Source: a virus (lineage: Duplodnaviria; Caudoviricetes). From it: a DNA stretch of 64,000 bases. The notes under the pieces are model-generated. The model ran no database searches. It was not told where the DNA came from and saw nothing but the letters and a program-made list of their open reading frames with translations. Made by a program: the position numbers and the translations under genes. Where the stretch lies: IMG/VR virus record IMGVR_UViG_3300014720_002243, positions 20,700-84,699 of that record, one strand, 5' to 3'. Below are positions 35,020 to 54,821 of the stretch, one piece after another. Numbering within the stretch: the stretch's first letter is position 1; every line of letters begins with the position of its first letter.

Positions 35020-35299
35020 TTTATGGTGTCCCTACTTCTTTTAGACCACCCCCGGTTTTTATGGAAAAAAGTGGCAGTCCTTTAGAAAATGAAAAAACCC
35101 CCTAAACCTTTACTCTGCAAGGGTTTACGGCGAATATTTTGGGCCACATTTTTCATAAAGCCTTGAAAATCATAGACTTACGTGCATTTTACAAAAATGG
35201 CAGGACAAAATGGCAGAAACTGCAAGAATGACATAGTGCCATAATGACAGAATCATCAAAAACGCCGAGAAAATCGTGGAAAAAATATTTTTCGGCATT

Positions 35300-35315
35300 T
35301 GGCACGGTATCTGCA
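35300..35315 (+). promoter_or_regulatory. Sigma54-like -24/-12 promoter
   Basis: TGGCACGGTATCTGCA (GG-N10-GC) about 30 bp upstream of the ATG at 35346. Confidence 0.5.
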
Positions 35316-35345
35316 CTATATATTGGTAGAAAAGAAAGGAAAAGA

Positions 35346-35534
35346 ATGAATAAGTACAGCAAAAAGGTGCTTTCCAAGCGTTTGAACAAGTTGGGCTATA
35401 CTTTGGGTCGTGATATTTTCGGATGGGTCGTGATTTCCACCCATACAGGCTTCGAATGGAAGTTCCCCACCCTAGGAGGGGTGAATAGGTTTATTCTTGA
35501 CACGGAAAGCCTCAAGGCCATGAATACCCCATAG
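35346..35534 (+). CDS. Small early protein (paralog of 36141..36350)
   Basis: RBS plus ATG at 35346; shares the L.K.GYTL.R...W...W.F..L.GV.RF pattern. Confidence 0.65.
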   Translation: MNKYSKKVLSKRLNKLGYTLGRDIFGWVVISTHTGFEWKFPTLGGVNRFILDTESLKAMNTP

Positions 35535-35600
35535 AGGGGGGTTGACAAGCGATTTTTTCTAGTGTATAATCATTTCATCATCACCAAGAGGAAAAAAGAC

Positions 35601-35924
35601 ATGACCAAGTTCGCAATCATCGAAAACGCCAAGCGTCAAGCCCGTATGTGCTTTCTCGGTATCGCTATCCCGTGCGACAAGACCACTGTTGATGGTAGCG
35701 TGATTCGTTCCGAAAAGGTTTTGAAGTTCAACCGTAAGGCTCTGCGTCGAGCCAATAGCGTCAAGATGGAAAAGGTTGATCCCCGCGTTGTGGGGGGTGA
35801 TGATAGCATGATCGTAAAGGTTGGAAAGCCCGGCTCCCCCGAAAGGGTGGAAGCACTCGCTGCTCAATACTCTGCCGTAATGGCAGAAGGGATCGAAGTA
35901 TCCCCCTTTGGGTGGGATGGCTGA
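35601..35924 (+). CDS. Hypothetical early protein
   Basis: TTGACA-17-TATAAT promoter at 35542-35570, GAGG RBS, ATG at 35601. Confidence 0.65.
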   Translation: MTKFAIIENAKRQARMCFLGIAIPCDKTTVDGSVIRSEKVLKFNRKALRRANSVKMEKVDPRVVGGDDSMIVKVGKPGSPERVEALAAQYSAVMAEGIEVSPFGWDG

Positions 35925-36140
35925 CGTAACCCGTTGAGACGCAAGGCTTTGCGTTCGACGGGGCCACAGAGGCTTGACGTAAACCCTTGCAAATCAACAA
36001 CATAGCAAATACCATGCCAAACAAAGGTAAAACCGTAAAAAGTTTTGTCAAAATCTCTTGACAGAAAAATCCAAAGATTTTGCTTGCAACCTAAAGAATC
36101 GCCCTGTATAATGTCGATATAAGAAAAGAGGAGAAAAAAG

Positions 36141-36350
36141 ATGAACAGCAAAACGATTGCCAAAGAGTTGCAGAAGATGGGTTACACACTCAAGCGGACT
36201 TCCGATGTTGAAGCCCGATGGATGGTTCGCTCGGATGTGCTAACCTACCATTGGAACTTCAAGGACTTGAAGGGTGTGGAGCGTTTCATGGTTGACGAAC
36301 GGGCTATGTATCGGTATGCTAAGGCGAACGGTGCTACGCTTCGCAAGTAG
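36141..36350 (+). CDS. Small early protein (paralog of 35346..35534)
   Basis: Own promoter and GAGGAG RBS; motif similarity to the 35346 gene. Confidence 0.65.
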   Translation: MNSKTIAKELQKMGYTLKRTSDVEARWMVRSDVLTYHWNFKDLKGVERFMVDERAMYRYAKANGATLRK

Positions 36351-36362
36351 AAAGGAAATGAT

Positions 36363-36758
36363 ATGATGTTTTCGGATTGCTGTGGTGTTCAGATTGTAGA
36401 CGATATTGCAGGATTGGAACTCTGCCCGCGTTGCTGGGAGCATTGTGAGGTTATCGTCGAAGATGAGGATATGGCCGCTGCTCGGGAAGAGATTGAAAAT
36501 ATGTCCGTCGAAGAGTATAATAGCCTTCCTCTCTATAAGGGCTGAACAATGCAAGTTTTCGATCATAGACTTTTGGTTGCTGTGCCTGCGAATAAGTGGA
36601 TCGGGGAATGGATTCAGCGTGACCCATCCCCCATATACAGAGGTACACTTGCTGCACAGTTGCGACTGATCCGCAAGAGGCACGGTACCCCCTATGCGAG
36701 GGAGTGGCGTGACCATATGGTGTGGCTTGGCAGTTATCCTCCCAAATATAAGTACTAA
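36363..36758 (+). CDS. Two small hypothetical genes (36363..36545, Cys-motif acidic protein; 36549..36758)
   Basis: Tightly packed ORFs; SDCCG...CPRCWEHC motif in the first. Confidence 0.55.
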
Positions 36759-36960
36759 TCCTAAATCGTTGGCCCATAAGGCTTTGCGACTTGGGCCCTC
36801 GGCCTAGGTTGACGCAAACCCTTGGGAAACAATACGTTGCAGATTTTTTCGATTTGGCACGAAATTATATTTGAAATTTTCCAAAGATTTCGCTTGCAAT
36901 CTAAAGAAAACTCTGTATAATGTCGATATAAGAAGTAGGAAAGAAAAAGGAGACGATAAA

Positions 36961-37668
36961 ATGGTTACCTTGAGCACCCGAGACGAGTTGGTTGAGTTCC
37001 TGTATGGTGCGGACAGCACTTCTCCCGATACGTTGGTTGGGGTTGCCACCATCGGTGGAGAGTTGCTGGCTGAGGCTCTTACCCACGATCTGCGGGATGG
37101 CACCTTCCATATTGGGGATTTCTTCCCGATGGGTGATGAGGGTGAGGGAATCACCGTTGACCGTGATGGACGCATTCTGGAAGACTATCTGTACTATTGA
37201 TCAGTATTGACAGCATAAAAATCTGTAGTATAATAGTAGAAAAGAAAGAGAGAAAAGATGCAATCCTCGATGAGCGTAAACGGTTTTCTTGCTAGCCTTC
37301 CTAGGATCGTACAGAAGAAGGTGTGGAAGGTTACGGATAAGGATGGTACGGTTGTTCAGTATGTTGGTGCTACGGATAACCGAAAGACTACTGCACAAAA
37401 GTATATCGACACCAAGTATCCCGATAAGGTACTGGTATTGACATTTTCACATTTCAATGGTATGATTACACTTCCTCGCTAACCCTTATGCAAGAAAGAA
37501 ATAATGAATCCTCAAGCAATCAATGATTCTCGGCCTCTCGTGTGGACGGTTTCGGAGAATGTTCCCGATACTTACTGCCTGTATATTGATGGTATTCTTA
37601 TGCACGAAAACCTCTCGTTCGAGGAGTTTTACCCCCTGTATAAGGGGTATATTTCTAATAAGACGTAA
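36961..37668 (+). CDS. Three small hypothetical genes (36961..37200, 37258..37482, 37504..37668)
   Basis: Preceded by purine-rich RBS and promoters; the last stop codon TAA is the first 3 bases of the repeat at 37666. Confidence 0.55.
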
Positions 37669-37922
37669 AACATGAAGCCACAAGGGTTTACAACACTTGT
37701 GAGTATAGAGGGACGATGTAAAGCCTTGTGCGACATAGACTTAGGAATTGTGCTCTTTTGGCATGGCTTTTGCTCTAGCATACTCTGTGCCAAACAGCGT
37801 CAAAATGAGAAAAAGTTTTGTCAAAATCTCTTGACATAAAAAATCCAAAAAATCTCTTGACTTTCAAGTTTTAGCCTGTATAATGTCGATAATAGAAGAG
37901 AGAGAAAGAAAGAGAGAACTAA

Positions 37923-39151
37923 ATGCTTCGCAAGATTCCAAAGACTGAAACGATTCGCAAGAGTATCCGCCGGTATGCGTATATTGCTGGCTTTACGCTC
38001 CATCCCCATAGCGTTGGGTCTATTCCTTCTGGTGTTCCCGGTACGTATAGTCTTTTCGATATCAAGATGGGCTACTATACTCATCGTAGTATTCCGATGG
38101 ATACGGTCGTTCGCGTTATAGTAGACGAACTGTATGCTATAAAGTATCGACTCGGCCCCTCTCTTGTGAGGGGTTGACAAGGTAAAATAGTTTAGTATAA
38201 TACCTAAATCAAGAAAGAAAGAGATAAAAATGAGTTGCCCTGACCCGCTTTATGATTACGAGGATTGGAACGACGAGGATTCGTCCGACGATGGATATGA
38301 TGCCATGAAGGATAACTATCTCACTAATGGTGGGTATGGTTACAATGAGCGTACCCGGCGTGAGGATCAAGAATGGGCCGATGAGTGCCGCCGTAATAAG
38401 TGGTGAATCACATCTCTATGCTCGACAAGGCTTTGCATCGAGCAGCCCCGGCCACGCTTGACGTAAACCCTTGTGGCATAAGAAAAAAGATTTTTTGCTT
38501 GACAACCTAAAGACTGGCCTGTAAAATACCGATATAAGAGAAAGAGAAAGGAACCCAAAATGAAACTTTCCGGAATGTTGGTTGAGAATCGTCGGCCTGT
38601 TTATTCGTATTCTTGGCTTTGCGAAAAGATGGCTGATCGTTCGCGTGTTTTGCTCAAAACTGGAGACGGAAAAAACCATTTTGGTCTAATCAATGGTATC
38701 CGTCCCGAGGATGGTAGCGGTCGATGCTGGCTGGTGACTCTCACCGAAAACGGAAAGAATGAAACGGTTTTTATGAGAACCTCTTGATTTTCTAAAGTGT
38801 AGACTGTAGAATACCGATAACACTAGAAAAGGAAATAGAATGACTCACAGCGAAGCGATTAGCATGGTTCATGGTAAGCGTAATGCGAAGCGACGTAAGG
38901 TTGGAAATAACACCTACGCTGAAATCCTGCATGATAATAGTGTAGGGATTATGCTTCACAGCACCTATGTTGTGAAGATTCATCCGGACGATACATACAC
39001 CCTGCAAACAGGGGGATGGCAAACGGTAACGACCAAGGATAGAATCAATCAATATAGTCCGGTTCGCGTGTATCAGCGAAAGTATGAGTGGTTTGTAAAG
39101 ATACACGGAAAGGAATACCCCTTTATGGAGGGGATGGTAGTGGGAGGTTGA
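37923..39151 (+). CDS. Small hypothetical genes (37923..38177, 38230..38406 acidic, 38560..38787, 38840..39151)
   Basis: Each has its own sigma70-like promoter and purine-rich RBS. Confidence 0.55.
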
Positions 39152-39253
39152 CGTAAACCACGGTGCCGCAAGGATTTGCGGAAACTGTGGCCGGACTCAT
39201 TTTTCATAAAGCCTTATCGTGTAAGGTTTTAGGATTTTCTTCAGTTTTGGCTA

Positions 39254-39282
39254 TTGACAAGCCGATAATATCTTTGTAGAAT
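39254..39282 (+). promoter_or_regulatory. Representative early promoter TTGACA-(CCGATA box)-TG-TAGAAT
   Basis: TTGACAagCCGATAatatcttTGTAGAAT. Similar promoters at about 39710, 42320, 43016, 43622, 45134, 45458, 47654, 48480, 49587, 50611, 52352, 53480 and 61642. Confidence 0.8.
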
Positions 39283-39302
39283 GATCCCATAAGGAGAAAA
39301 CG

Positions 39303-39596
39303 ATGCTTGCAACCAAAAGAGACATGGCCGAGCGGATCGCTGAGAAGGTTGGTGTTACTGGAGCCCAAGCCAAGGAGATTGTACAGGCAACTCTTGATGA
39401 TTTGGTGTTGACTCTTGCCAGTACGGGCAGAATCGAACTGAGGAACTTTGGTGTTTTTACGGTGAAAGTTCGGGCCGCTCGTAAGGCTAGGAATCCTCGC
39501 AGTGGTGCAACCGTTATGATTGGCGAGCGTCGTACCGTTAAGTTCAAGCCAGGAAAGGCTATGGAACAGGCTGTACAGAATCCTCTCCCCTCTTGA
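39303..39596 (+). CDS. IHF/HU family DNA-bending protein
   Basis: TKRDM...RIELRNFGVF.V..R.ARKARNPRSG..V.I..R..V.FKPGK.M signature. Confidence 0.93.
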   Translation: MLATKRDMAERIAEKVGVTGAQAKEIVQATLDDLVLTLASTGRIELRNFGVFTVKVRAARKARNPRSGATVMIGERRTVKFKPGKAMEQAVQNPLPS

Positions 39597-39764
39597 GGGG
39601 GAGCCTCTACATAAATCCAATAGACACAAGGGTTTATGCTAGGTGGCTTCGGGAGCCAAAATCGTAAAGCCTTGTGTGCATTGAACTTAGATTTTTTTAA
39701 AGAATACGCTTGACAAATGACGATAATAGATGTAGAATGGATCAGAAACCTATTGGAGAGTAAA

Positions 39765-40730
39765 ATGGAAACCTTGTTTGTTCCTGTTCGTCATGATGTT
39801 GTTTCTTTCGCCTATAAGGGTAAGTCCTATACCGGGGAAGTTCGTAGAGTTTATGAAAAGCCCAAGGGTCATCTGATGATCGTGAAGATTGCGGAAGGTA
39901 AGTATCGCTCCTGCTATCTGGAAAACTGCGAAAACTTTTCATTCATTAATAAGTGAGGAAAAATGTCTACAATCTCTGTCTGGTTGGCTGGGGTTTCTGT
40001 AGTTTTTCTTGTAGGAGGCTTTGCCTGTTGGGCTATTGAGTCTTGTAAGAATAACTGGAGAAATAGAATCACAGTAGAGGATCTGGAAGAACTTGGTCGA
40101 TTATTTGAGCAGGAAGGCTCTTTCATTGGTTTTAATGATCGTGGGGAAAAGTTTTTAGTTGGTTTCACAAAGGATAAATAAACAAAGGAAAAAGGATGTT
40201 CGGTATTAATATAGACTGGATGTGGATGGGTGTGGGATTTATTGTGGGTATTGGTTGTTCTTGGGCTGTTTGCGATCTTGTTTTTCCGATAAAGAGGCAA
40301 TAATGAATCTTTACGATAAGATTATCTTGTCGAGTTCTTTTATCCTTGGCTGTGTGGTGAGCTGGATTATTAATCACTAAACATAAGTCCTTGTCTAGCA
40401 AAGATTTGCGGCAAGGCTATGCGGCCACGAAAATCATAAACCGTTGCCAATAAAAGACTTAGGCAAAATCCGATTTTTTCAAGAACCCCTCTTGCATTAG
40501 CCGATAATGACTGTATAATCGGTGCAACACTAGGGAGAAAAATGATGAGCATCTTCGAAGATACAGATACGATCAACGCTATCCTCTCCGATCTTGCGGA
40601 GCGTGAGATTCTTGAACCTATGGCTGAACCGATTGACGATCCCGACTGTCATCCTCTGGATTGGGCGGAAGTTGTTGGGGTTGCCGATGAGATTTTCGAT
40701 GAAATCTACCCAGAATCAAACAGGAGTTGA
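39765..40730 (+). CDS. Small hypothetical genes (39765..39956, 39963..40181 membrane-anchored, 40542..40730 acidic)
   Basis: RBS plus promoters; amino-acid composition. Confidence 0.5.
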
Positions 40731-40813
40731 CAAATAAAATGTTGAACGGTATACTCTTTATTGTCGGATATATCGGTTTGTTCTATATCGCTGTAACCTT
40801 GAAGGACTGAAAG

Positions 40814-41173
40814 ATGAGCCATCCTGACCCGTTGTATGATCCCGAAAACTCTTATGAGGATGATGATATGGACGCAAACTATGACGATTACAATGATTTC
40901 CATGATGGCGTTGATGGTGATGATCGTACTAATGAGTATTGGCCCAACCTAACTACCGGCGGTGATGACGATGAGGATGGCTGGAATGAATTTGATAGTT
41001 GGGATGAGGATTATGATGATAGTATGGACGGCGACCATGATAGCGGTATGGCTTCTGCAGGATGGGGAACCGACGAGGATTACGGTTATTACGGGGACGA
41101 TGTAGAAGATTTTCATACAGATGAGGCTGTGGGTTTTGTAGATTACGACGAAGACGGCCCATATTACGATTGA
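40814..41173 (+). CDS. Extremely acidic D/E/Y-rich protein
   Basis: 119 aa with almost no basic residues; N-terminus MSHPDPLYD is shared with 38230..38406 (MSCPDPLYD). Confidence 0.7.
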   Translation: MSHPDPLYDPENSYEDDDMDANYDDYNDFHDGVDGDDRTNEYWPNLTTGGDDDEDGWNEFDSWDEDYDDSMDGDHDSGMASAGWGTDEDYGYYGDDVEDFHTDEAVGFVDYDEDGPYYD

Positions 41174-41308
41174 ACCTAAAGCCTTATCGCACAATGGTTT
41201 GCGATTAGGCTCTCCGAGAGCATATGTCTTAAACCCTTGTGAGGCAACGCTTTAGAAAAAATAAAGATTTGCTATTGCAAAAGCCGATTATAGTGGTAGG
41301 ATACGAGT

Positions 41309-41488
41309 ATGAGCAAGCGAAACAGCAAAAAGACGATCACGATTAGCCTGAATCTAAAAAAGGTTTGGGAGGTTCCTCGCGGACATTGTGAACATATTAG
41401 TGGTACCGGTGTCCACGATAATAGGGCTAGGCGTGAGCGTACCCGTGGTACTGCTAACCGTAAGGCTTTTAGAGACTATGAGGACTGA
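41309..41488 (+). CDS. Small Arg/His-rich basic protein (paralog of 50894..51058)
   Basis: KKVWEVPRGHCEH...DNRARRERTR versus KKPWELSTGHREH...DNRPKRQRTR. Confidence 0.6.
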   Translation: MSKRNSKKTITISLNLKKVWEVPRGHCEHISGTGVHDNRARRERTRGTANRKAFRDYED

Positions 41489-41779
41489 GTCTCTGCTAAT
41501 CCTAAAGGATTGACTAGAGTGGCTGTAGTCAGCGAGAATTTCTTGTATAGACATTATCAACATAAAGGATAAAATGCTAAAATCTTCTAATGTTTTGATT
41601 TCTTTGTCTGAGATCGAAGTTTGTTTGATTATTGCTGGTTTGTATACTGTAAAGGGTAAACAGGCTGATGAATCTTATAAGATTTTTGTCCAACAACTAA
41701 TCGACAAGGTATCGAAGACTCAACCGGAAACATCGATTTGCTAGTTGACAAACTCTTACAAGAAAGGTAGAATGTTGCT

Positions 41780-43488
41780 ATGACTGGTATGACGCTTAAG
41801 GATTGGATTAACGCTTATATTCCAAAAGGAAAGACTGAGGATAATATGGTAAAAGTGGTGGTTACGCAAACTGATACGTTCTGTGGTGAGCCTAACTATG
41901 GCTGGGCTAACCGATATGAGTTTATTATTCACAAACAGGCATCTCAGCGTAATGTGGTGCGTAAGGCTAAGGCTTTGGCCGGAATGACTGGTGTTAAGGC
42001 CGATACCTACGATTATGGTGATGGTTATACTGTAAAGCCTCGTGGATATAATCAGGTTATTTTTGTGGATTTTGAATAATGAAACTTTTTAAAAAGAAAA
42101 ACCCATATGAAAAAGCTAGAGAAAGAATGGAGCGTGAAACAGCTAGGGCTCTTGCTCATGTTCAGAATCTAGAAAAAATGTATCAAGAAATGAAAAAGAA
42201 GCATAAGACGTAACCTCTTGATAATCAAGGCTTTGCAAAAAGCCTCATCAATAGAAGAACTCATAAACCATTGTCCAGAAAGGACTTAAAGATTTTTGAA
42301 AAATCACTACAGAGACCCCTTGACAGATACCGATAAAGATAGTAGAATACGACAACAACAGGAAAGGAAGTTTATGCTCTACCGTTTTTATGATATTGTG
42401 GCCGAAAACGATGAAACCGAATACTCTTTGGATAAGGAATACACTCTAGATATTCCAGAACATGATATGTCTACCGCTGTTGAGCGGCAAGAATACCTCG
42501 GTAAGATGTTTGATGCTCTGATTGCTGCTACTGGTTGCAATATTTCCTCTTTTAGTTGCGACCCATCGTAAGCAGACACCCGTTTTCATAAATCCTTACC
42601 AGATAAGGGTTTGTGAACTTCGGGACCGGCATAGATATGCGTAAAGCCTTGCAACGTAAGAACTTGCATCAAAAAAAGATTTTTTCAAGATTTGCTCTTG
42701 CTTTTGTCGATAATAGAGGTATACTTAGAGAATACCACTCGAAGGAGATGCTAAAATGAGTCCTGACGGAACCTACAACGGATATGCGAATCGTGAGACT
42801 TGGAATGTTTGTCTTTGGATTTCTAATGATGAAGGTCTGAACGAGTTTGCGGCCGTTTGCCAAAACTACAATGATTTCAAGGCTAGGCTTCGTGAAGTTG
42901 ATCCCGATTCGGCTATCGCATATGAAACGCCCGACAATGTGGCTTGGAACGATAGTGCCGTGAATCTTGCAGAAATGCAGGACTATTGGGAAGAAAACTT
43001 TTCTAAGGTTTGGGGTTGACAAACGACGATACAGAGTGTAAACTGTAAGCAAGTGACGATAACAATAGAAGAAAGGGAATGATATGAGCGATTGGATTCT
43101 GATTGGCGGTGTTTTTACGGCTGTGATGGTGTCTATTATGGCCTTTGTTGTCTATGGTGTTTATGGTGGTGTTCATGCTTCGCTGTCGAACGCGAAGAAG
43201 GGAGAGGTTTACAACTTCCTTTATGAGCAGCCACTTCATGGTGATCCTGAGAGATTTATGGCTAGAGTTCTTACTGTGAATATTATGACTGACGAAGACA
43301 TTCGCCGTCTCAATAGTAAGAGCCGTTATCGTCGTAATGATCCAGAGTTTCACCGAACTAGGCATCTTATTACCGCTCAAACTGCGGATGGTAAGGTGAG
43401 AAACTTTTATGCGGAGCGTACTACGCAGTGCAAGCGACCCCTACTGGCTGGGGCTCTGTTCAAGGCTGGCTTGGCCCATCTTTTCTAA
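41780..43488 (+). CDS. Hypothetical genes (41780/41846..42079, 42374..42571, 42756..43019, 43084..43488)
   Basis: ORFs with RBS and promoters; 42756 has a TYNGYANRETWNVCLWI motif common in phage small proteins; 43084 has an N-terminal transmembrane helix. Confidence 0.55.
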
Positions 43489-43819
43489 ACTTCCTTTCTA
43501 GGTTGTCGCGGAACCTTCGCTCTAAGTCCTTGTTTACCAAGGGTTTGGGGCGAAGGCCCGCGGTACAACAAGACATAAACCCTTGAGAATCAACAAGATA
43601 GAAAAAATAAAGTTTTGACCGTTGACAAGTCGATAATACTTGTTAGAATACGTTTATGAATACTACAAACTGCTACGCTTACCCTACATACGCTTGGAAA
43701 GTTTTTAGATTTAGCCACACTTTTGTTGGTGTGATTACTGCAAGTTCGCAATATCAGGCTATCATTCTTGCAAAAGAGAAATATGGGGATTTTGTTTGGA
43801 TTGAAAGAGTTAGGTAGTT

Positions 43820-43892: not shown

Positions 43893-43897
43893 TTTGT

Positions 43898-45019: not shown

Positions 45020-45180
45020 ATAAGCGGGTTCGCTCTAAATCCAAGAATATCAAGGGTTTAGGGCAAACCGGCCCGTGGAGGCTGAACGCAAACCCTTGTA
45101 GAGCATCGACTTAGATTTTCTGGATTTTGTCTCTTGACAAGCCGATAATAGTTGATAGAATGCTGGAAAAGGAGATTCAC

Positions 45181-45714: not shown

Positions 45715-45749
45715 ATACAACCAGTAACCGTTTTAGCAATGAGGGTATA

Positions 45750-47176
45750 ATGACCGTTAACGAACTTATTGAACAGTTGAAGAACTATCCCGGTGATACT
45801 AGGGTGCTTACTCTTGGTTATGAGGGTGGGTATCACGATATTAGGCTAGATAATAATGATATTGTGTTCGATGTTAAGCGTGGTGATGGTGCTTGGTATT
45901 ATGGGCCTCATGAGTGTGTTAAATTTACTGATGAAGAAACTGGGACTCCGTGTTTGATTATTACAAGGGAAATTACTAGGGTTACTGATAAACATGGATT
46001 GGAATAACTCTCATAAGAATCCGCCAACTGAGGGCCAGAAAGTTTATTATTTTGGAGAAAATATTGGTATAGGTATTGGACACTATAGGTATAAAGAAAA
46101 TAGTGTATACGGTATCGAACTTTGTCCACATCTATTTAAGAATGTTGATTGGGGTTTGGTAGATGCTTGTGATGCTCCTTACTGGCTACCATACGATGAG
46201 GAGCGAGCAAAAAGTTGGTGTCCTATTATTCCAGAAAAATATACTACAGGATTATACGACTGATTATGGAACTAAAAACTCTTAGTGATATTTGTCCATG
46301 TGGACTTTGTAGTGTGGCAGCATACACTCTGGATCGTAATGGTATATGGTGGTTCTATTGCGACAAATGCTATTGGTGGTATATCGGAAACTCTTACTGA
46401 TAAAGGGTTTGCGACGATCCTGCCCGAGGAGGTTATTCGTAAAACCTTGAGAATACAAGACTTAGGGTTTTTTAAAGAATACTCTTGACGATACCGATCT
46501 ATACTGTATACTTAAGGGGAACAATGGACGGGGATAGCCACAATGATATCAAAAGAGGCTATCTGAAATGCTGGTCGAGTATGGCGGAAGCCGACATTGT
46601 TTTTCCTAATCCTACGGATTTGGCTAGAGTGGCTGTAGTCAGCGAAAGTTTAAAGGTCTTGACAAGTACTGGTCGATAAGGTATACTAGCAACATGAAAC
46701 AGAACCAACTACATGGCGAAGTAAGGTTTCATCTTGGTGGTGGGGCTCATTATATGCACTGGCAAGTGCGAATCAAGCAGGGCGGTAAAACTGTTGACGT
46801 GTATTATTACGACCCTAATGAATATCAGTTGGAAATGAGGGGCTGTAGGCTGCGTAATCGTCCTAATAAAGCCAAGCAAGTTTTTGAGGCTGGTGTGCAT
46901 GATGTGAGCGGGTGGATTCGGTGTGAAGAAACCATGCTTCGCAAAAGTTTTTATCCGGTTTTGCCTGTTGACAATCTTGAAAAGTTGTATTATAATCCGC
47001 TTCGTGATCCACACTGGCGTCGTGAAAGTGATAACAATGAGTTTATCTGGGATGAAACACAATACGCTACACTGATTACAAGTGGCAAGCAAGTTTATAT
47101 TCTAGAAGAACGAGATTGTGCATTTGACAATATTAGAGAAATAGACCCAAAGTATTTAGAAGGATTTAATGTATGA
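45750..47176 (+). CDS. Hypothetical genes (45750..46007, 45994..46263, 46266..46400, 46694..47176)
   Basis: Packed ORFs; MTVNELIEQL..YP.D N-terminus typical of phage small proteins. Confidence 0.55.
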
Positions 47177-47541: not shown

Positions 47542-47811
47542 ACTAAAGCCTTGCTGCGTAAAGCTTTACGCCAAGGCGAGACGGCGACAGAAAACGCAAA
47601 CCCTTGATACTGCTAAACTTAGGAAAAATCAAAGAAAGATTCAATGTAGAGGGTTGACAATGACGATAACCATGATATACTGATAGCATCACACGACAAG
47701 ACGCTAGTTGAGAGCAACCAACAAAGTTTCAACTTAGCACTTGACAGGTGATGTTGACGATGTATAATACGTTTACTTGGTTTGATAACACTTTTGAGAA
47801 AGGTTTTTACA

Positions 47812-48063: not shown

Positions 48064-48101
48064 CTTGACAAACTGGACTGTGCCAGTATAAATAGGTTTT
48101 A

Positions 48102-48282
48102 GGCACAGTGCGGCGGGATAACTTCCCGCGTAATATGCCGGGGATTCAACCGGCCTAGCAGAGTCTAACCAACTAATAACCAGCGTGGTTGCTGGGAAGG
48201 GGTCTGCTGCTAGTAATATAGCGATGGTAAAGTGATCCCACCATCTAACCGTATAGCCCGCACGGGACGCCGTGACGGGCTT
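48102..48282 (+). ncRNA. Candidate multi-stem structured RNA C
   Basis: GC-rich non-coding stretch after a promoter at 48065-48092; stems GCGGGA/TCCCGC, GCCGG/CCGGC, AGCAGA/TCTGCT, CCAGC/GCTGG, GATGGT/ACCATC, GCCCG-CACGG/CCGTG-CGGGC. Confidence 0.6.
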
Positions 48283-48293
48283 TCGGCAATAGA

Positions 48294-48365
48294 GGCCCCA
48301 TAGTTAAATGGATATAACAAGTGCCTTCTAAGCACTGGTTAGAGGTTCGATTCCTCTTGGGGCTA
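48294..48365 (+). tRNA. tRNA-Arg(TCT)
   Basis: GGCCCCA/TGGGGCT, anticodon loop CTTCTAA. Confidence 0.9.
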
Positions 48366-48532
48366 TTTCTCTAAAGCATTGAAGCGTAAGGCTTTGCGAA
48401 TATTGTGGGCGGAGGCGAAAATCATAAACCTTTGTGATTCAAGGATTTACGCATAAAATCTTTTCTTCAAGAATAGGGCTTGACTGTACCGATAATCTAG
48501 TGTAGAATCGAGAGACACGCTAGGAGAAAGTG

Positions 48533-49243
48533 ATGAAAACTGCAAACGGTAATGACAAGTTAGGTAAGGAAAACTGTATCGTCGTGTCTCGTCCCGTTGG
48601 CGATACTTGTCCACCAGACTGTGATTTTTTGGGTAATGGTTGCTATGCCGAGGACTTGGAAAATATCTATCCCGGTGTGCGTCCTGCTGGTATGCAGAAT
48701 CTTATCACGGAAAAAAACCGTATCCGTTCGATGTTGGTCGATGCTGTCAAGAAAAATAAAGATGTTCGCTGGCATGAACGCGGCGACTTTTTCAAGGACG
48801 GTCAACTCGACAATGAATATGTCGATAATGTATTGTGGGCTTGTGAGAGTATCGTGGCCGATGGCGGTAGTCTGCCAACAATGTGGGCATATACTCATAT
48901 TTATGATACTAGACTGTCTACTGAACTTGGTAAGTATATAAATATGTATGCTAGTATCCATGATGGCGAAGATATGAAACAGGCAAAGGCCGCTGGTTTT
49001 AGGCATTTTGCGTGGTGCGATAGTGATACTAAGATTGCCCCTAAGCGTCCGCGTAGTAAGGCTAAAGCCGACGCATGGCGAGCAGCATTACCGAAACTGG
49101 TTGTCTTAGAGGGGGTAAAGTTTATCACTTGCCCGGAAATCCGTCGTGGTCGTGGTGTCGTCACTTGCACGAAAACTAAAAATAGCGTACACTGTGATTT
49201 GTGTCCGCGTGGCTTGGCTAATGTTTTGTTTCCCTCCCACTGA
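48533..49243 (+). CDS. GP88-like Cys-cluster (radical-SAM-like) phage protein
   Basis: TCP..C......CYA, VRWHERGDF, WAYT and C-terminal CP...C...C..C motifs. Confidence 0.6.
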   Translation: MKTANGNDKLGKENCIVVSRPVGDTCPPDCDFLGNGCYAEDLENIYPGVRPAGMQNLITEKNRIRSMLVDAVKKNKDVRWHERGDFFKDGQLDNEYVDNVLWACESIVADGGSLPTMWAYTHIYDTRLSTELGKYINMYASIHDGEDMKQAKAAGFRHFAWCDSDTKIAPKRPRSKAKADAWRAALPKLVVLEGVKFITCPEIRRGRGVVTCTKTKNSVHCDLCPRGLANVLFPSH

Positions 49244-49250
49244 GGATAAG

Positions 49251-49487
49251 ATGAAAAGTTTTACATATGAGTGCGTTACTCTTGAAGATATTTGTAAGCA
49301 TAATCATTTGAATCATGCCGAAATAATGGATGCTGTTTCTAATAGTGATGTATCTTTTGGTACTAATGCTGACACTCTAATGACTAGAAGTATGTTACAG
49401 GACATTGTGGACGATTGGTTTGATAATCCTACACAGTTAGATTGGTGCGGCTACGATGATCGTATCCTCATTAGTCTAGGAAGTTGA
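49251..49487 (+). CDS. Hypothetical protein
   Basis: GAGG RBS, ATG at 49251. Confidence 0.5.
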   Translation: MKSFTYECVTLEDICKHNHLNHAEIMDAVSNSDVSFGTNADTLMTRSMLQDIVDDWFDNPTQLDWCGYDDRILISLGS

Positions 49488-49658
49488 TCTAAAGCCTTAA
49501 TACGCAAGGGTTTGCGTCAAGGCGACACGTCAAGAAAAGACATAAACCATTGATACGTAACGACTTAAGATTCTAAAGAATCAGCATTGACAATGCCGAT
49601 AAATAGTGTAGAATACAAGCAACTAAACGGGTATTTCTTATGTCTAGATGGAGTGAAA

Positions 49659-50258
49659 ATGGCTAAGAATAAGTTTTCTTATGTGGGTAAGTATGCTGAT
49701 GGAGGGAGTCAAAACTCTTTCTACAAAGTAAAGAATACCAAATACGGATTCAAAAGTTTTCCAAATAAAAGTTTAGCAACATTCGCACATAAGGTACAAT
49801 CTGTATTGTCCCAAGATATTCTTGCTCCAAAAGTTTTTAGTCCCGTTTGCAGGATCAGGATTCCTAACTTCTTTATGGGTCGTGGAGGTAAAACAGAGAC
49901 TCACATGATTCTGAGCGATTGGGGTTATCTTACTGAAATCGCTTTACCTTTTAGATGTAAGTCTGATGACTATTGTGATGGAGACTGTGCTCATAATACA
50001 GGGTGTGTGCATCATGATACTATTTGTAATCTTATTGATGATATTGGTGGTTGCGGGCTAGACTACATTGATGCACATGAGTACAATCTAGGGTATGTCA
50101 AAAGAGGAAAGAATAAGTTTTTGGTAGTTATTGATGTCGGTGCCGAGAGCATTAGTCCTCAAGATGATGAGGATTATTATCCCGAAGTGTGTTGGGATGG
50201 TTCGGAAGATATGGAGTGTTGCTGTGAACAATGTAGGAGCAAATACGCATATGCCTAA
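49659..50258 (+). CDS. Stand-alone protein-kinase-like protein
   Basis: Gly loop DGGSQNSF, YGFK lysine, catalytic IDAHEYNLGY, VVIDVG. Confidence 0.65.
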   Translation: MAKNKFSYVGKYADGGSQNSFYKVKNTKYGFKSFPNKSLATFAHKVQSVLSQDILAPKVFSPVCRIRIPNFFMGRGGKTETHMILSDWGYLTEIALPFRCKSDDYCDGDCAHNTGCVHHDTICNLIDDIGGCGLDYIDAHEYNLGYVKRGKNKFLVVIDVGAESISPQDDEDYYPEVCWDGSEDMECCCEQCRSKYAYA

Positions 50259-51252
50259 GTATTATATTAAGTGTGGTTCTTTGGAACTCAAGTACAGTAC
50301 AAATAAAAGCCCTATTGAAGCAGCCGTGGTTGCTATAAATGAAACAAACAAGTTTGATGTTTTAGACGAATATTTTTATATTGATGAGCGAGGTTTTAGA
50401 GACTATATTAGTGCTGATAAAACTACGCAAGTAATCAAACTAAATAAAGTAGCCAAAATCGCAGGATGGAGAATCAATAAAGAACAAGATTCTGATTGCG
50501 AGGGATTCTGACATAACTCTTTGTGGCGTAAGGCTTTGAGCCTAGCCACTCTGGGCGACATTTTCCACAAACCACTGTCAACAAACAACTTAGGAAAACT
50601 AAAGAATCGGTTGACAGATACCGATAAATATGGTATGCTCATCAGAAGAAAAGGAGAAAGGATGATCCAGTGGATTGGGGTGATTATAGCGTTACTCGGA
50701 ATGGCCTATAACGGTGTAAAAGACTATCAAAAGGGTGATATTAAACTACCACAACTGCCAGAAAAACAAGTATTGACAAAACCCGTTTATCCAGTACAAT
50801 ACTGTCTGATGGCTTATGATCCTAATGTAGATAAGGTTTTTTATCAGCACGAAAATGGACAATGGTATGAGTATGCACCACCTCAACGACGATATGCGAC
50901 CCAAACGCAACCACAACAAAATCAAAATCAAGGTCAAGAAACCTTGGGAGTTGTCTACGGGTCATCGAGAGCATCGGGATACCATTATGGACAACAGGCC
51001 CAAGCGTCAGCGAACACGACGAGATATTGAGCGTGCTTGGCAAGAGGAGTATGAATGATGTATCACTATATTACAGTACAGGTTGTTATGCGTGACTGTA
51101 AAAATAAAGAGGATGCCGAAGCAAAATGTTCTAGACTTTTACCGTATCATCCAGATGAAAATACAAGACATATGGAATCTTGGGAGATCGTAAGGGTGGC
51201 AGAGGCTAGGCCGTATTATAGCGAACAGTGTGTTGACAATATACAAGATTAG
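50251..51252 (+). CDS. Hypothetical genes (50251..50511, 50662..51030 membrane-anchored, 50894..51058 basic, 51055..51252)
   Basis: RBS and overlapping junctions; 50894..51058 is supported by its paralog at 41309. Confidence 0.5.
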
Positions 51253-51271
51253 TATATGATATATAATATGT

Positions 51272-51347
51272 TGGGGAGTAGAGTAGTCCGGTCTAACTCA
51301 CTGGTCTCATAAGCCAGTATTCGTTGGTTCAAATCCAACCTCCCCCA
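51272..51347 (+). tRNA. tRNA-Met(CAT), initiator-like
   Basis: Anticodon loop CTCATAA, 1:72 mismatch, T-loop TTCAAAT. Confidence 0.85.
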
Positions 51348-51351
51348 TTTT

Positions 51352-51423
51352 GCCCGCATAGTATAATGGCTATTACAGTTGATTTGTAATCATCGGATAC
51401 TAGTTCGATTCTAGTTGTGGGCT
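51352..51423 (+). tRNA. tRNA-Thr(TGT)
   Basis: GCCCGCA/TGTGGGC, anticodon loop TTTGTAA. Confidence 0.85.
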
Positions 51424-51494
51424 TCCGGGATGGTGAAACGGTATCACAACTGACTTTGGATCAGTTTTTCTACGTTCGAATCGTAGTCCCGGAA
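51424..51494 (+). tRNA. tRNA-Gln(TTG)
   Basis: TCCGGGA/TCCCGGA, anticodon loop CTTTGGA. Confidence 0.88.
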
Positions 51495-51509
51495 TATAAA
51501 GGAGATATT

Positions 51510-51929
51510 ATGCTTGGCAGTAATGCAATATACTTGGCTCAAGAGATTGGTAGTTGGGGTCTTATTCATATGGATAAAGACCAAAAAATAGACACTATTA
51601 AAAAGAATGAAGTTATTATTCGTGCATTTAAAAATGCTATTCATGATATGGCAATAATGATGTATGAGTTTATGACTAATGATAGACGATCTAATCTATA
51701 TGGTTATAAGATGAAGTTTGCCGCAATAGAGAATATCTCATCTGAGTTATGCTCTTGTTTGACTTATAATAGTAATGTAGCATTTGGACCTTGCGATAAA
51801 GACTACAATAGAATAGCAGATGACTTGGAGTCTATGGCGAAAATATTAAATTTTGAGATAGATAATAATATGACTAGTATCGAAAGTTATAAAAAAACTT
51901 ATAAAGTAATGGAAAGAGTAACTGTCTGA
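51510..51929 (+). CDS. Hypothetical protein inside the tRNA cluster
   Basis: AAGGAG RBS, ATG at 51510 (the ORF-track start overlaps tRNA-Gln). Confidence 0.6.
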   Translation: MLGSNAIYLAQEIGSWGLIHMDKDQKIDTIKKNEVIIRAFKNAIHDMAIMMYEFMTNDRRSNLYGYKMKFAAIENISSELCSCLTYNSNVAFGPCDKDYNRIADDLESMAKILNFEIDNNMTSIESYKKTYKVMERVTV

Positions 51930-51933
51930 TTTT

Positions 51934-52006
51934 TGCCTAGTAGCACAATGGTAGTTGCAAGCGGCTGTTAACCGCTGGGTTGTAGGTTCGAGTCCTACCT
52001 AGGCAG
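51934..52006 (+). tRNA. tRNA-Asn(GTT)
   Basis: TGCCTAG/CTAGGCA, anticodon loop CTGTTAA. Confidence 0.9.
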
Positions 52007-52009
52007 TTT

Positions 52010-52080
52010 ATTGGCGTAGTTCAACGGTAGAATGACGGTCTCCAAAACCGTAGATGAGGGTTCGATTCCCTCCGCCTTTG
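52010..52080 (+). tRNA. tRNA-Trp(CCA) with mismatched acceptor stem
   Basis: Anticodon loop CTCCAAA; acceptor ATTGGCG/CGCCTTT has two T-T mismatches. Confidence 0.7.
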
Positions 52081-52083
52081 TTT

Positions 52084-52170
52084 GGAATCTTGGCCGAGTG
52101 GTTTAAGGCAGCGGTTTACTAAACCGCCGAGGGTTAAAATCCTCCACAGGTTCGAATCCTGTAGATTCCG
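52084..52170 (+). tRNA. tRNA-Ser(ACT)
   Basis: GGAATCT/AGATTCC, G73, long variable arm, anticodon loop TT-ACT-AA. Confidence 0.88.
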
Positions 52171-52172
52171 TT

Positions 52173-52252
52173 GGTGGGTTTCCAGAGCGGCAAATGGGCC
52201 TGACTGTAGATCAGGTGCTTCGGCTTCGGGGGTTCGAGTCCCTCACTCACCA
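52173..52252 (+). tRNA. tRNA-Tyr(GTA)
   Basis: GGTGGGT/ACTCACC, anticodon loop CTGTAGA, variable arm present. Confidence 0.9.
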
Positions 52253-52594
52253 CTAAACTGTTTGACCTCAAGGGTTTACGACTTTTATTGGCGAGTAATC
52301 AGATCGCAAAGTCTTGGTATTGAAGGACTTAAGAAAATCTAAAGCATCCCCTTGACGCTGGCCGATAAACAGATATAATGACCACACGGAGGCTGACGCA
52401 GAGTTACGGACAAGCGAGAATATGGGAAGAAGCAAACCCACCGTATAAAAAACTCAAAGAGTCCAACCAGAGAGTTAACGGTTATGGCTGCCCCTGTCTC
52501 GCCTAATGCTACAAGATTGGCGATGGTGGCTGTAGTCAGCGAGAAAAAAGAGACTATTGACATATTCTTCACCTAACGATACAATCGAACGTAT

Positions 52595-52667
52595 GGGCCT
52601 CTAGCTCAGTTGGTAGAGCAAGGGTCTTTTAAACCTTTGGTCGTGGGTTCGAGTCCCACGGGGCCCA
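52595..52667 (+). tRNA. tRNA-Lys(TTT)
   Basis: GGGCCTC/GGGGCCC, anticodon loop CTTTTAA. Confidence 0.92.
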
Positions 52668-52884
52668 CTTGACAAGTTTCGTTTATTGGTGTAGAATACC
52701 CTAAAGGGAGTTTTTTATGTATTACGAATATGAATACGAAAACTTGGTCAATAACACAGATGACTTGTATTCTGAACAAACAGAGTACGAGTATACTGAA
52801 AATATTGAATGGCAAGACTATTACCATAATCTTACAGAAGAACTAGAAATCATCGAATAGATATCTTCTATTATCTATTTATCA

Positions 52885-53382
52885 ATGTCTAATATATTGA
52901 ATAGCACGATTGAAAACCATCGTAAAACAGAAGATGGTAAATATATTCAGGGGGCCAGTCACACCTGTCATGTTCTGAATCACAAGGAACGAAATAGGAT
53001 TATTATAAAAGCTGTTTGTGATCTAAGAAAAATCAGTAATACTTTTGATAGTATTGCCTGCTGCGGTGTGAGTGGACTGATGGTAGTTCCACAAATCGCA
53101 GAGTTACTCAATAAGAATATTATTGTGGTAAGAAAGGGGGAACGATGCTATTCGGAGTTTCGTACCGAGGGAGTGGCCCCTTTTCAATATATTATATTAG
53201 ACGATTTAATCTGTTCTGGCTCGACCGTTAAGCATATCAAGAAAGTAATCAAGGATGAATACTCGCGTTCTCATTGTGCTGGTGTGTATTGCTATCTGCC
53301 TAATGAATGTGCTTATAGGGCTGACGAGGATGGCTCTAAACTCTGCAAGCGTGATCTTGGGGTTCCGCTTCTAAATCTATAA
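52885..53382 (+). CDS. Type I phosphoribosyltransferase-fold protein
   Basis: PRPP-binding loop YIILDDLICSGST; IIVVRK. Confidence 0.8.
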   Translation: MSNILNSTIENHRKTEDGKYIQGASHTCHVLNHKERNRIIIKAVCDLRKISNTFDSIACCGVSGLMVVPQIAELLNKNIIVVRKGERCYSEFRTEGVAPFQYIILDDLICSGSTVKHIKKVIKDEYSRSHCAGVYCYLPNECAYRADEDGSKLCKRDLGVPLLNL

Positions 53383-53550
53383 GACACAAGGGTTTACGAA
53401 AAACCCAAACGCCGCGAAAAATCACAAACCCTTGGCAAATCTAGGCTTACGTCAAAAAATTTTTCCACAAGTTTGAGGCTTGACAGACCGATAACATAGT
53501 GTAGAATCATTGTAGTTGAACGAGAGAACGATAACACGAAAGGATTGGAT

Positions 53551-54495
53551 ATGCCTGCTGCTGTTGAACAGATGATGTTTGTTGGTGAGACTCCTTGGCA
53601 CGGCCTTGGTAATCAGGTCGAGGAAGGTGTCAATGTTAGTGACGCTATGACCGCTGCCGGTCTGGATTGGGAAGTCGGTCTGAAGGATTTGCAGACTGTT
53701 GACGGTATTCCTGTTTCGCATCGTGCGACCTATCGCAAGAGCGATGGTAGCATCCTCGGTGTCGTGGGGCCGCGTTACACTCCGCTCCAGAATAAGGATG
53801 CTTTCGATTGGTTCCAGCCTTTTCTGGATGCTAATGAGTGTTCTATTCATACTGCTGGTGCTTTGCACTACGGTCAAAAGGTTTGGGTGCTTGCTCAACT
53901 GAACCGTGACAATAGCGAGATTGTTCCGGGTGATGAAGTGTGCAAGTTTATTCTGCTTTCTAACTCTCACGATGGTAGTACCGCTATTCGTGTCGGATAT
54001 ACTCCGATTCGCGTGGTCTGCGTTAATACGCTGTCTTATGCTCACAAGCACAATGACAGTAAACTGATTCGTATTCGTCACACTCGCTCCAGCCAGAAGA
54101 ATCTGGAAATGGTTCGTGATATTATGGACAATATTAACGCTGGTTTTGAGGCTACTGCGGAACAGTATCGGTTCCTTGCTAGTAAGACTTTCAATCAGAA
54201 GGATATTGATAAGTATGTTAAGATTGTGCTCGATATTAAGGGTGCTGACGAGGACATTAAGACTCGCACCCGTAATATCATGGATGATGTTCTTGCTCGT
54301 ATCGAAGGCCCGAAGCAGTCGGCTACCAATGTCCGTGGTACTTGGTGGGCTGCTTATAACGGCTTCAATGAATATCTAAACTATGGTAAGGGTCGCACGA
54401 CCGATAATCGTCTCGACTCTCTCTGGTTCGGACAAAATGCGAATGACAATATGAAGGCACTTAATACTGCCTTGGAGTTCGCTAACGCTATCTGA
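53551..54495 (+). CDS. DUF932 family protein
   Basis: PWHGLG, AGLDWEV, Y.PLQN..AF, NSHDGS, TPIRVVC.NT, IRHT, TWWAAYN motifs. Confidence 0.88.
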   Translation: MPAAVEQMMFVGETPWHGLGNQVEEGVNVSDAMTAAGLDWEVGLKDLQTVDGIPVSHRATYRKSDGSILGVVGPRYTPLQNKDAFDWFQPFLDANECSIHTAGALHYGQKVWVLAQLNRDNSEIVPGDEVCKFILLSNSHDGSTAIRVGYTPIRVVCVNTLSYAHKHNDSKLIRIRHTRSSQKNLEMVRDIMDNINAGFEATAEQYRFLASKTFNQKDIDKYVKIVLDIKGADEDIKTRTRNIMDDVLARIEGPKQSATNVRGTWWAAYNGFNEYLNYGKGRTTDNRLDSLWFGQNANDNMKALNTALEFANAI

Positions 54496-54821
54496 CGCGA
54501 ATCCCGGTAGCCGTAAATCCTTTAACCACAAGGGTTTGCGGCAAACCGGCCCGCGAATTTTTGTCGCAAAGCCTTATCAGTCAAGGACTTAGTTAAACTT
54601 AGCGACTCATTCTTAGACTTACGCTATAGACATTCGACGCAAGTGACGATACAATGGAACGTAAGTGTAGGAATACCAAGGATTTAGGGAAAGTTTATAA
54701 TCCACTTATGAATCCGTAAAATGATTGTAAGTAGTTAAAATATTCCAAACTTTTTTTGTATTACCTTATCCGGCCCGATTGGCGGTCTTGGCGATAGTCA
54801 GCCAGAATATGGAGTCCTTTA

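Follow-up and report, generated by a model that had tools for sequence, protein, structure and literature searches.

Phased double palindromes recur at the early promoter cassettes of an uncultivated lake-water phage and its relatives: a putative operator or insulator module

Introduction

T4-type phages carry promoter-early stem-loops (PeSLs), cassettes of stem-loop, A/T-rich stretch and sigma-70 promoter that are described as flanking ORFans and mediating their shuffling (PMC2839356, Arbiol et al. 2010; PMC4122927, Comeau et al. 2014). In phage phi29, imperfect inverted-repeat pairs are each described as binding a dimer of protein p4, with DNA bending and promoter switching aided by a histone-like protein (Camacho and Salas 2010, PMC3100819), and the p4/p6 region of the early-to-late switch is also treated in PMC1904284. 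Here we describe a 78-bp element, a pair of 9-7-9 palindromes (9-bp arms around a 7-bp spacer), that is repeated 21 times in the early region of an uncultivated phage represented by the 84,699-bp IMG/VR record IMGVR_UViG_3300014720_002243 (hereafter G000). The window analyzed is a stretch of 64,000 nucleotides, bases 20700-84699 of that record, and positions below are those of the window unless another record is named.

The cassettes in which these units sit share much with PeSLs as portrayed in the papers cited: each is a composite cassette of ~100-190 bp found repeatedly in the intergenic spaces of small early genes or ORFans, each begins with a structured G+C-rich element and continues through an A/T-rich stretch and a strong sigma-70-like promoter to a Shine-Dalgarno sequence, and in both the cassette is conserved while the genes it flanks differ or are shuffled. 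They part company in the upstream element, which in PeSLs is described as a simple stem-loop that terminates transcription (PMC2839356), whereas here it is a 78-bp pair of sequence-conserved palindromes at a fixed 53-bp offset, with no pairing covariation and a helically quantized distance to the promoter. PeSLs, moreover, belong to T4-type myoviruses, whereas G000 is siphovirus-like, carrying a long tape-measure open reading frame (ORF); as this is not a T4-type phage and the unit is not a simple terminator stem-loop, we rejected strict PeSL membership. The likeness to phi29 lies in imperfect inverted-repeat pairs placed beside early promoters, with pseudo-symmetric half-sites that are reported to be read partly by DNA shape (PMC3100819). 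Whereas phi29 is described as having four sites of the form CTTTTT-15 bp-AAAATG in one control region (PMC3100819), the 21 units of G000 place 42 palindromes along 19.5 kb, and these have other sequences and spacers of 7 bp. We identified no counterpart of p4, and the histone-like gene is not conserved in the relatives. By analogy, the closest described systems in mode of action would be phage early-region operator pairs such as those of phi29, together with portable cassettes of the PeSL type.

We propose that the unit serves early promoter cassettes as an operator or insulator module in helical phase, to which a putative dyad-symmetric protein would bind, and we give this reading a probability of roughly 0.55. 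Early-gene regulation in uncultivated large phages is almost unknown, and the element described here needs nothing but sequence to be recognized, is conserved among related phages and leads to clear predictions. A portable module of promoter plus operator that sits beside shuffled ORFans, it would extend the PeSL idea past T4-type phages.

Results and discussion

Anatomy of the double-palindrome array

The initial annotation of this DNA described 21 paired palindromes between 35103 and 54591, and pattern count, alignment and weight matrix all confirm them. Its palindrome pattern, allowed up to 3 mismatches on both strands, has 52 matches, compared with a mean of 0.69 and a maximum of 3 in 100 dinucleotide-preserving shuffles, and every match but one (at 20066) lies within 35103-54591; a 78-bp weight matrix run over the full 84,699-bp record found no unit outside the same interval. 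The units share a single orientation, that of transcription, and together their 42 palindromes span ~19.5 kb, as follows (supported by pattern, alignment and weight matrix unless another basis is given):

35103..35180, + strand, unit 1 (double palindrome)
35927..36004, + strand, unit 2
36762..36839, + strand, unit 3
37666..37743, + strand, unit 4; first TAA is the stop of ORF 37504-37668 (pattern, ORF list)
38411..38488, + strand, unit 5; outer arms degenerate (weight matrix, alignment)
39154..39231, + strand, unit 6; precedes the HU-family gene cassette (weight matrix, alignment)
39612..39689, + strand, unit 7
40384..40461, + strand, unit 8; half-decayed counterpart at the orthologous junction of relative G002 (alignment, weight matrix)
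41177..41254, + strand, unit 9
42211..42288, + strand, unit 10; first TAA is the stop of ORF 42079-42213; full IHF consensus on both strands (pattern, ORF list)
42589..42666, + strand, unit 11
43523..43600, + strand, unit 12
45036..45113, + strand, unit 13
46387..46464, + strand, unit 14
47544..47621, + strand, unit 15
48372..48449, + strand, unit 16; 6 nt past tRNA-Arg (pattern, tRNA list)
49490..49567, + strand, unit 17
50514..50592, + strand, unit 18; 54-bp offset, 1-nt linker insertion (pattern, alignment)
52254..52331, + strand, unit 19; abuts the end of tRNA-Tyr (pattern, tRNA list)
53372..53449, + strand, unit 20
54514..54591, + strand, unit 21

Printed and aligned copies share one layout, in which two 9-7-9 palindromes flank a 28-bp linker, G+C-rich at its centre, and so bring together four 9-bp half-sites in the order outer-7-inner-28-inner-7-outer. 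The alignment also bears out the spacing first reported, with palindrome starts 53 bp apart in 20 units and 54 bp apart in the unit at 50514, which has one extra linker base. The best-conserved arms read CAAGGGTTTR, and the 7-nt spacers are variable. A single consensus had been put forward for both palindromes; it describes the first, which fits it better (0-6 mismatches, compared with 1-7 for the second), but not the second, which is a conserved hetero-palindrome, TAAACCCTT-N7-AAsGACTTA. The left arm of this second palindrome is of TAAAC/G type in 20 of the 21 window units and in 15 of 19 units from related phages, and its right, promoter-proximal arm, read on the other strand, is of TAAGTC type in 14 of 21 and 17 of 19, respectively. 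The polarity of the arms is thus conserved in both the window and the relatives, and because the two arm types differ as AC versus GT at positions 4-5, which is the same step on opposite strands, shape readout by a binding protein is possible. The linker centre is G+C-rich as claimed (66% over its central 10 nt, compared with 43% regionally), although GGCC, said to occur there often, is found in 9 of the 21 window linkers.

As judged by eye from the ORF and tRNA lists, the start of 12 of the 21 units overlaps the stop codon or tRNA end upstream of it or lies no more than 6 nt away, and the TAA at 37666 and that at 42211 do double as stop codons. Contigs from public lake-water runs that are identical to the window bridge several units (one of 5321 nt, for example, covers 35619-40939), meaning that the array is not an assembly artefact, with the caveat that one of these runs may be the sample of origin. 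Our search of the literature found no description of a 78-bp double-palindrome element, and searching with two of the arm 9-mers returned only unrelated primer-type matches.

Conservation of the units in related phages

An exact-pattern scan of IMG/VR returned 69 loci, with real units by weight matrix in only 4 (listed below), and further units are present on six metagenome contigs. Structural proteins of the related records are 30-86% identical to their G000 counterparts.

G001, 46-kb fragment, 3 units
G002 (L087), 161 kb with terminal repeats and rated complete, 8 units in one ~16-kb stretch
G003, short fragment, the same unit as G001 carries
G004, 36-kb fragment, 8 units

The initial annotation had staked its proposal on conservation of the 53-bp spacing in related phages. 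Using a 25-bp single-palindrome matrix that imposes no spacing, and considering neighbours up to 120 bp away, we found palindromes 53 bp apart in 29 of the 32 neighbouring pairs in the relatives (54 bp in two and 103 bp in one) and in all 17 of the pairs detected in G000, and the proposal thus withstands this check. The linker centre is cleaner in the relatives (GGGGCnnGCCCC, GGGGCCGGCC), where the outer arms are of TAAGTC type, the inner arms are of TAAAC type and the whole unit comes near to a 78-bp dyad.

The genes around the units are far less constant. Early genes common to G000 and G002 form colinear blocks whose order differs, with 21 units in the one genome and 8 in the other, and units together with promoters of the CGATAA class described below recur in G001 and G004, where the early genes sampled do not resemble those of G000. 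As in PeSLs, then, the cassette is kept while the ORFs that it flanks differ, and by this analogy the early cassettes resemble the PeSLs of T4-type phages in their behavior. At one orthologous junction, G000 has a full unit and promoter, and in G002 the second palindrome has gone, leaving the first, the G+C centre and the promoter in place. Solitary palindromes or half-decayed units also occur elsewhere in the relatives, namely in the 8161 region and at 4459 and 11807 of G002 (L087) and at 45853 of G001.

The lake-water runs X1-X4, examined over window positions 35000-54999, also contain a related phage at ~10-fold greater depth (~230 vs 23 in X1), with patches of early genes that are 85-95% identical to those of G000 in a different order. 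Contigs aligned to the same interval show many joints to this abundant relative, and these joints, which have short sides and 85% likeness and are of low confidence, do not fall consistently at units.

Promoters and the helical ladder

Most units are followed by a promoter of one sigma-70-like class, TTGACA-n-(C)CGATAA-n-TAGAAT, which has an A/T-rich stretch, often with AAAGAAT, upstream of its -35 hexamer and a Shine-Dalgarno sequence and start codon after it, an arrangement of early promoters shared with PeSLs. Placement of the units at transcription-unit boundaries, just upstream of promoters, had been proposed at the outset, and the positions relative to stop codons, tRNA ends and the promoters listed here agree with it:

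36084..36112, + strand, promoter (TTGCAA/TATAAT), 79 bp past unit 2
36894..36921, + strand, promoter (TTGCAA/TATAAT), 54 bp past unit 3
37857..37884, + strand, promoter, 113 bp past unit 4
38499..38527, + strand, sigma-70-like promoter, 10 bp past unit 5
39254..39282, + strand, CGATAA-class promoter, 22 bp past unit 6
39710..39738, + strand, CGATAA-class promoter, 20 bp past unit 7
40491..40519, + strand, CGATAA-class promoter, 29 bp past unit 8
41275..41302, + strand, promoter (CCGATT spacer), 20 bp past unit 9
42320..42348, + strand, CGATAA-class promoter, 31 bp past unit 10
42698..42725, + strand, CGATAA-class promoter (weak -35), 31 bp past unit 11
43622..43649, + strand, CGATAA-class promoter, 21 bp past unit 12
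45134..45161, + strand, CGATAA-class promoter, 20 bp past unit 13
46485..46512, + strand, promoter (CCGATC spacer), 20 bp past unit 14
47654..47681, + strand, CGATAA-class promoter, 32 bp past unit 15
48480..48508, + strand, CGATAA-class promoter, 30 bp past unit 16
49587..49614, + strand, CGATAA-class promoter, 19 bp past unit 17
50611..50639, + strand, CGATAA-class promoter, 18 bp past unit 18
52352..52379, + strand, CGATAA-class promoter, 20 bp past unit 19
53480..53507, + strand, CGATAA-class promoter, 30 bp past unit 20
54627..54655, + strand, promoter-like site, 35 bp past unit 21

The remaining promoters of the early region have neither the CGATAA motif nor a unit. The CGATAA spacer motif and the TAGAAT -10 hexamer are common to all the related phages (window 39254-53507; L085, L087, L088, L232, L246, L328), and the spacer motif may mark a second recognition element.

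Distances from unit to promoter are not evenly spread. Measured from the end of the unit to the -35 hexamer of the next CGATAA-class promoter in a set of 44 units from G000, G002, G004 and four metagenome contigs, of which the 31 with such a promoter within 70 bp were used, they fall into steps of 16-22 bp (10 units), 28-32 bp (12), 39-41 bp (5), 45 bp (1), 51 bp (2) and 59 bp (1). In a scan of periods from 7 to 15 bp, the best fit was at 10.6 bp (R 0.68), a value matched by none of 5000 uniform random sets scanned over these periods, and a looser promoter definition that admits 45 acceptable promoters for 51 units, some of them more than 100 bp away, still gave R 0.55 at 10.5 bp, with R 0.56 for the relatives alone. 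Units in different distance classes are joined to their promoters by different sequences, which rules out simple repetition of one insert as the source of the ladder. Since 10.6 bp is one-fifth of 53 bp, the palindrome pair and the promoter share one rotational register. Helical phasing, which the initial annotation had read from the 53-bp offset, thus holds both within the unit and between unit and promoter. A ladder that extends across several phages is hard to explain save by a face-of-helix constraint, for which neither RNA elements nor passive mobile remnants would have any need.

On the operator or insulator reading, the unit would be a platform of double-stranded DNA that offers four 9-bp half-sites around a G+C-rich centre to a dyad-symmetric oligomer, for example two dimers bound five helical turns apart on the same face of the DNA. 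The cassette would run from gene end through unit, A/T-rich stretch, CGATAA sigma-70-type promoter and Shine-Dalgarno sequence to the next early gene, and because the unit lies at whole helical turns from the -35 hexamer, the bound protein would most likely act on RNA polymerase at that next promoter, either activating it or shutting off early genes at a set time. From its position, the unit could also block read-through from the upstream cassette and so act as an insulator. The units and promoters of G000 recur in G001 and G004 without its sampled early genes, which suggests that the binder comes from the host or from a phage gene located elsewhere.

Several observations weigh against this reading. 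A search for the binder, with Pfam on 20 early proteins and PHROGs on 10 of them, found no DNA-binding family other than the HU-like one. The ladder excludes the 13 of 44 units that have no CGATAA-class promoter within 70 bp, and because the units are paralogues and orthologues, neither the ladder nor the shuffle statistics come from independent samples, and the p-values imply more independence than there is. No unit accompanies about half of the region's strong promoter-like sites or some of the CGATAA promoters in G002, meaning that the unit is not required for promoter function. Finally, the absence of covariation described in the next section leaves room for an RNA or single-stranded element whose stem sequence is itself recognized, and no RNA run is listed with this phage.

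Tests of arm pairing and of IHF-type sites

If the palindromes were conserved as hairpins, changes in one arm should be answered in the other. Treated as two local hairpins in 39 units, 72.2% of alignment cells pair, compared with 72.7% when partners are shuffled (426 of 500 shuffles were at least as high); treated as a single long hairpin, with outer arms paired to each other, inner arms likewise and the linker folded, the figures are 67.2% and 65.5% (14 of 500 shuffles as high), an excess that is gone within lineages. Permuting the halves among 51 units revealed no excess complementarity in any arm pairing (z -2.8 to +1.1), with the linker at z -0.5 in the window and +0.9 in the relatives, and linkers fold no better than shuffled sequence (mean z -0.29, with 9 of 39 below -1). 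The sense strand of the second palindrome carries conserved A.C mismatches (41 A.C vs 4 G.T in the window). Deviations in one arm are never compensated in the other, which argues that the arms are conserved as sequence and not as hairpins, in line with the initial proposal that the element acts at the DNA level. Arms that are kept while spacers vary, among phages whose proteins have diverged to ~50% identity, are a mark of sequence-specific recognition, for which a protein that reads duplex DNA is the simplest agent. The Rfam 15 covariance models, searched over 33000-58000 at E values up to 1, gave no family match for any unit. Intrinsic terminators are not enriched within 35000-54999 (20 sites vs 14.1 expected), and only one of these sites (41209-41221) lies in a unit linker; on this basis the unit was rejected as an intrinsic (Rho-independent) terminator.

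The initial annotation named integration host factor (IHF) or HU as the likely binder. We tested the E. coli-type consensus WATCAANNNNTTR. The individual matches are as claimed, perfect on both strands at 42211 and on one strand at 45036, 47597 and 49543, but they amount to 5 of 84 arms (4 of 42 palindromes), and the WAT part of the consensus falls within the variable spacer. In the whole window there are 16 full matches where 7.27 are expected, and 5 of the 16 are in units. The array does include one gene of the relevant family:

39303..39596, + strand, HU/IHF-family gene inside the array (Pfam 4e-28)

Against the PDB, its product matches IHF-alpha (8.7e-14) and HU (1.7e-13) about equally. 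PF00216 was found in 1 of the 5 phage records and is not in the complete 161-kb G002, which has 8 units, and the gene is possibly an accessory and not a conserved partner of the units.

A repeat with a similar core in Chloroflexota genomes

The inner-core pattern AAGGGTTTR-N28-YAAACCCTT, run against a bacterial collection, gave, among the matches listed, hits on many contigs of a few Chloroflexota genomes, one of them labelled Candidatus Leptovillus affinis. The repeat responsible, AGACCCCAAGGGTTTG-N28-CAAACCCTTGGGGTCT, is ~60 bp long and shares with the inner core of the phage unit both the inverted 9-mers and the 28-bp distance between them. Its inverted 16-bp arms covary (C-G / T-A variants), its internal 28 nt are variable, and it is often tandem, with periods of 64-155 bp (L122, L128, L115, L118 and many other loci). 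Copy numbers, with up to 2 mismatches and a backwards control, are as follows:

G005, 311 copies (backwards control 2)
G006, 216 copies (backwards control 2)
G007, 137 copies (backwards control 0)
G008, 21 copies (backwards control 0)

In 80 other sampled genomes of the same class, there was at most a single imperfect match each, and the repeat matches no Rfam family. The phage-type 9-7-9 palindrome is not enriched in the repeat-bearing genomes (0-6 matches vs 0-3 in the backwards control), and no phage-type units were seen in bacterial genomes among the matches listed. The phage HU-like protein, used as a query, has no match in these Chloroflexota genomes, and a 20-kb query of phage DNA (of the 84.7-kb record) gave tRNA-level matches only, with no spacer-like match. 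The phage comes from lake water, whereas the labels of the Chloroflexota genomes (AalE, SlAct) hint at sludge. These points tell against a direct link, the last being a reading of labels only. The shared 9-mers and exact spacing may reflect chance, common descent or one host protein.

Alternative explanations

An RNA element at the 3' end of each cassette, whether a terminator or attenuator, an RNase III-type processing site or a 3' stabilizer, comparable with the early RNase III sites of T7 or with repetitive extragenic palindromic (REP) hairpins, would account for the co-orientation of all units with transcription and for the 12 of 21 that sit at stop codons or tRNA ends. The first palindrome, taken by itself, pairs in 81% of cells, and its mismatches in the window are G.T and not A.C (25 vs 4); GGGGCnnGCCCC centres in the relatives are followed in a few units by a T run, and the analogous stem-loop of T4-type PeSLs is described as terminating transcription (PMC2839356). 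The unit does have a G+C-rich centre (66%, and cleaner still in the relatives), and its linker folding (mean z -0.29) and covariation results are those given above. Compensatory changes are absent from every pairing scheme, the second palindrome has two conserved sense-strand A.C mismatches, terminator-like sites are not enriched, and an RNA element explains neither the 10.6-bp ladder nor why stem sequence, more than pairing, is conserved across phages; we consider it unlikely. The proposal that the palindromes are IHF or HU sites, at which in-phase paired bends by host IHF or the phage HU-like protein wrap or loop the cassette boundaries, has in its favor the helical phasing, which is real, and can point to CAANNNNTTR of the IHF consensus within the CAAGGGTTTR arms, to the excess of full-consensus matches over the window and to the HU/IHF-family gene with a cassette of its own within the array. 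Bacterial interspersed mosaic elements (BIMEs) have an IHF site between two palindromic units and form mosaics at gene ends. The phage units are like them in setting two inverted palindromic units around a linker at gene ends, and like E. coli IHF sites in CAANNNNTTR, but they differ from both in the rarity of the full consensus, in their confinement to one phage region and in their promoter phasing. The IHF site is asymmetric, and neither a conserved GGG/CCC core nor two-fold symmetry is known as a feature of it, whereas the unit has both; its arms hold far more information than IHF needs and are palindromic, the full consensus depends on the variable spacer, and PF00216 is not conserved with the units. 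Of the overall interpretation first offered, the DNA-level, phased, boundary-and-promoter architecture stands, and IHF or HU as the specific binder is not supported and rather unlikely; looping, wrapping, nuclease protection and ratcheting of incoming DNA are conjecture.

The units might instead be linkers for homologous shuffling of cassettes in the manner of PeSLs, descendants of REP-like or miniature inverted-repeat transposable element (MITE)-like repeats, or attC-like sites, with a regulatory position that is secondary. The rearranged early blocks of G000 and G002 with their unequal numbers of units, the orthologous junction that is full in one and half-decayed in the other, and the retention of units and promoters beside unrelated sampled genes in G001 and G004 would all fit, as would the occurrence of the inner arms, at 28-bp spacing, as the core of the repeat in four Chloroflexota genomes. 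In integron attC sites, which directly follow the cassette stop codon, an imperfectly palindromic centre lies between two simple sites, each consisting of inverted core boxes and a spacer of ~7 bp. The two simple sites of our unit around a central imperfect palindrome recall this plan, and in gamma-delta/Tn3 res, site III is a 25-bp element of 9-7-9 form and the centres of sites I and II are separated by 53 bp. The likeness to attC and res is one of geometry only. Tyrosine recombinase PF00589 was found in 0 of 5 phage records (control genomes 14 of 14) and serine recombinase PF00239 in 0 of 5, the complete genome included, so site-specific recombination by a phage enzyme is unsupported; there is no R-box consensus and no evidence of folded-strand pairing, and the phage cassettes, unlike those of attC, carry their own promoters. 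We accordingly rejected the unit as an integron attC (no IntI-type recombinase, and no excess folded-strand pairing in the permutation test), as a res-type site (no resolvase or invertase) and as a REP, REPIN or MITE-like repeat (confined to one phage region, with a palindrome for which the Chloroflexota genomes show no enrichment). The units lack the covariation that folded attC or REPIN hairpins should show, the joints of metagenome contigs are of low confidence and not consistently at units, and co-orientation, confinement to a single region and promoter phasing all point to selection for a cis-regulatory role, leaving an origin in recombination or mobility doubtful as the main explanation. 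A last alternative would have the units mimic the sites of a host protein that organizes the Chloroflexota repeat, recruiting it to early-cassette boundaries as a phased chromatin-like array that both insulates and drives promoters. The identical 9-mers and spacing suggest it, but it is a long shot. Were it true, filamentous Chloroflexota would be indicated as the host of this phage, whose tape-measure protein has 6543 residues. Should a host protein bind both the units and a chromosomal repeat, the units would offer a sequence clue to the host and an instance of a phage copying host genome-organizing sites.

Genome context and neighbouring genes

G000 is a phage fragment, 57% complete according to CheckV, that encodes a large terminase subunit and a 6543-residue ORF with a PhageMin_Tail (minor-tail/tape-measure) domain near its N-terminus (window 1-12954, - strand, continuing; G000:14022-33653), parts of which are matched by G001 and G002. 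Tail length is usually figured at ~1.5 angstrom per tape-measure residue. If the whole ORF sets length at that rate, the G000 tail would be near 1 micrometre. The INPHARED collection holds no close phage, with one 74-bp match only.

The array lies in a divergent + strand arm of small, mostly unknown genes, with 12 tRNA genes and ~40 strong sigma-70-like promoter matches. Three enzyme-like genes, with a possible role in sugar or DNA modification, are found at the divergent junction beside the array:

29369-30361, - strand, nucleotide-sugar epimerase-like gene
32732-34579, + strand, 615-residue protein with a glutamine amidotransferase-like region
34579-35019, + strand, acetyltransferase-like gene

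Within the early region, between ORF 47812-48063 and tRNA-Arg at 48294-48365, Rfam finds a full-model match to the Pistol ribozyme (RF02679) at 48072-48135 on the + strand (56.5 bits vs a gathering threshold of 34.5, E 5e-08). Farther along, ARAGORN predicts a tRNA-Ser at 52083-52171 (+ strand) with anticodon ACT, an unusual wobble A. It is one of four abutting tRNA genes in a row, the last of which runs up to the exact start of the unit at 52254.

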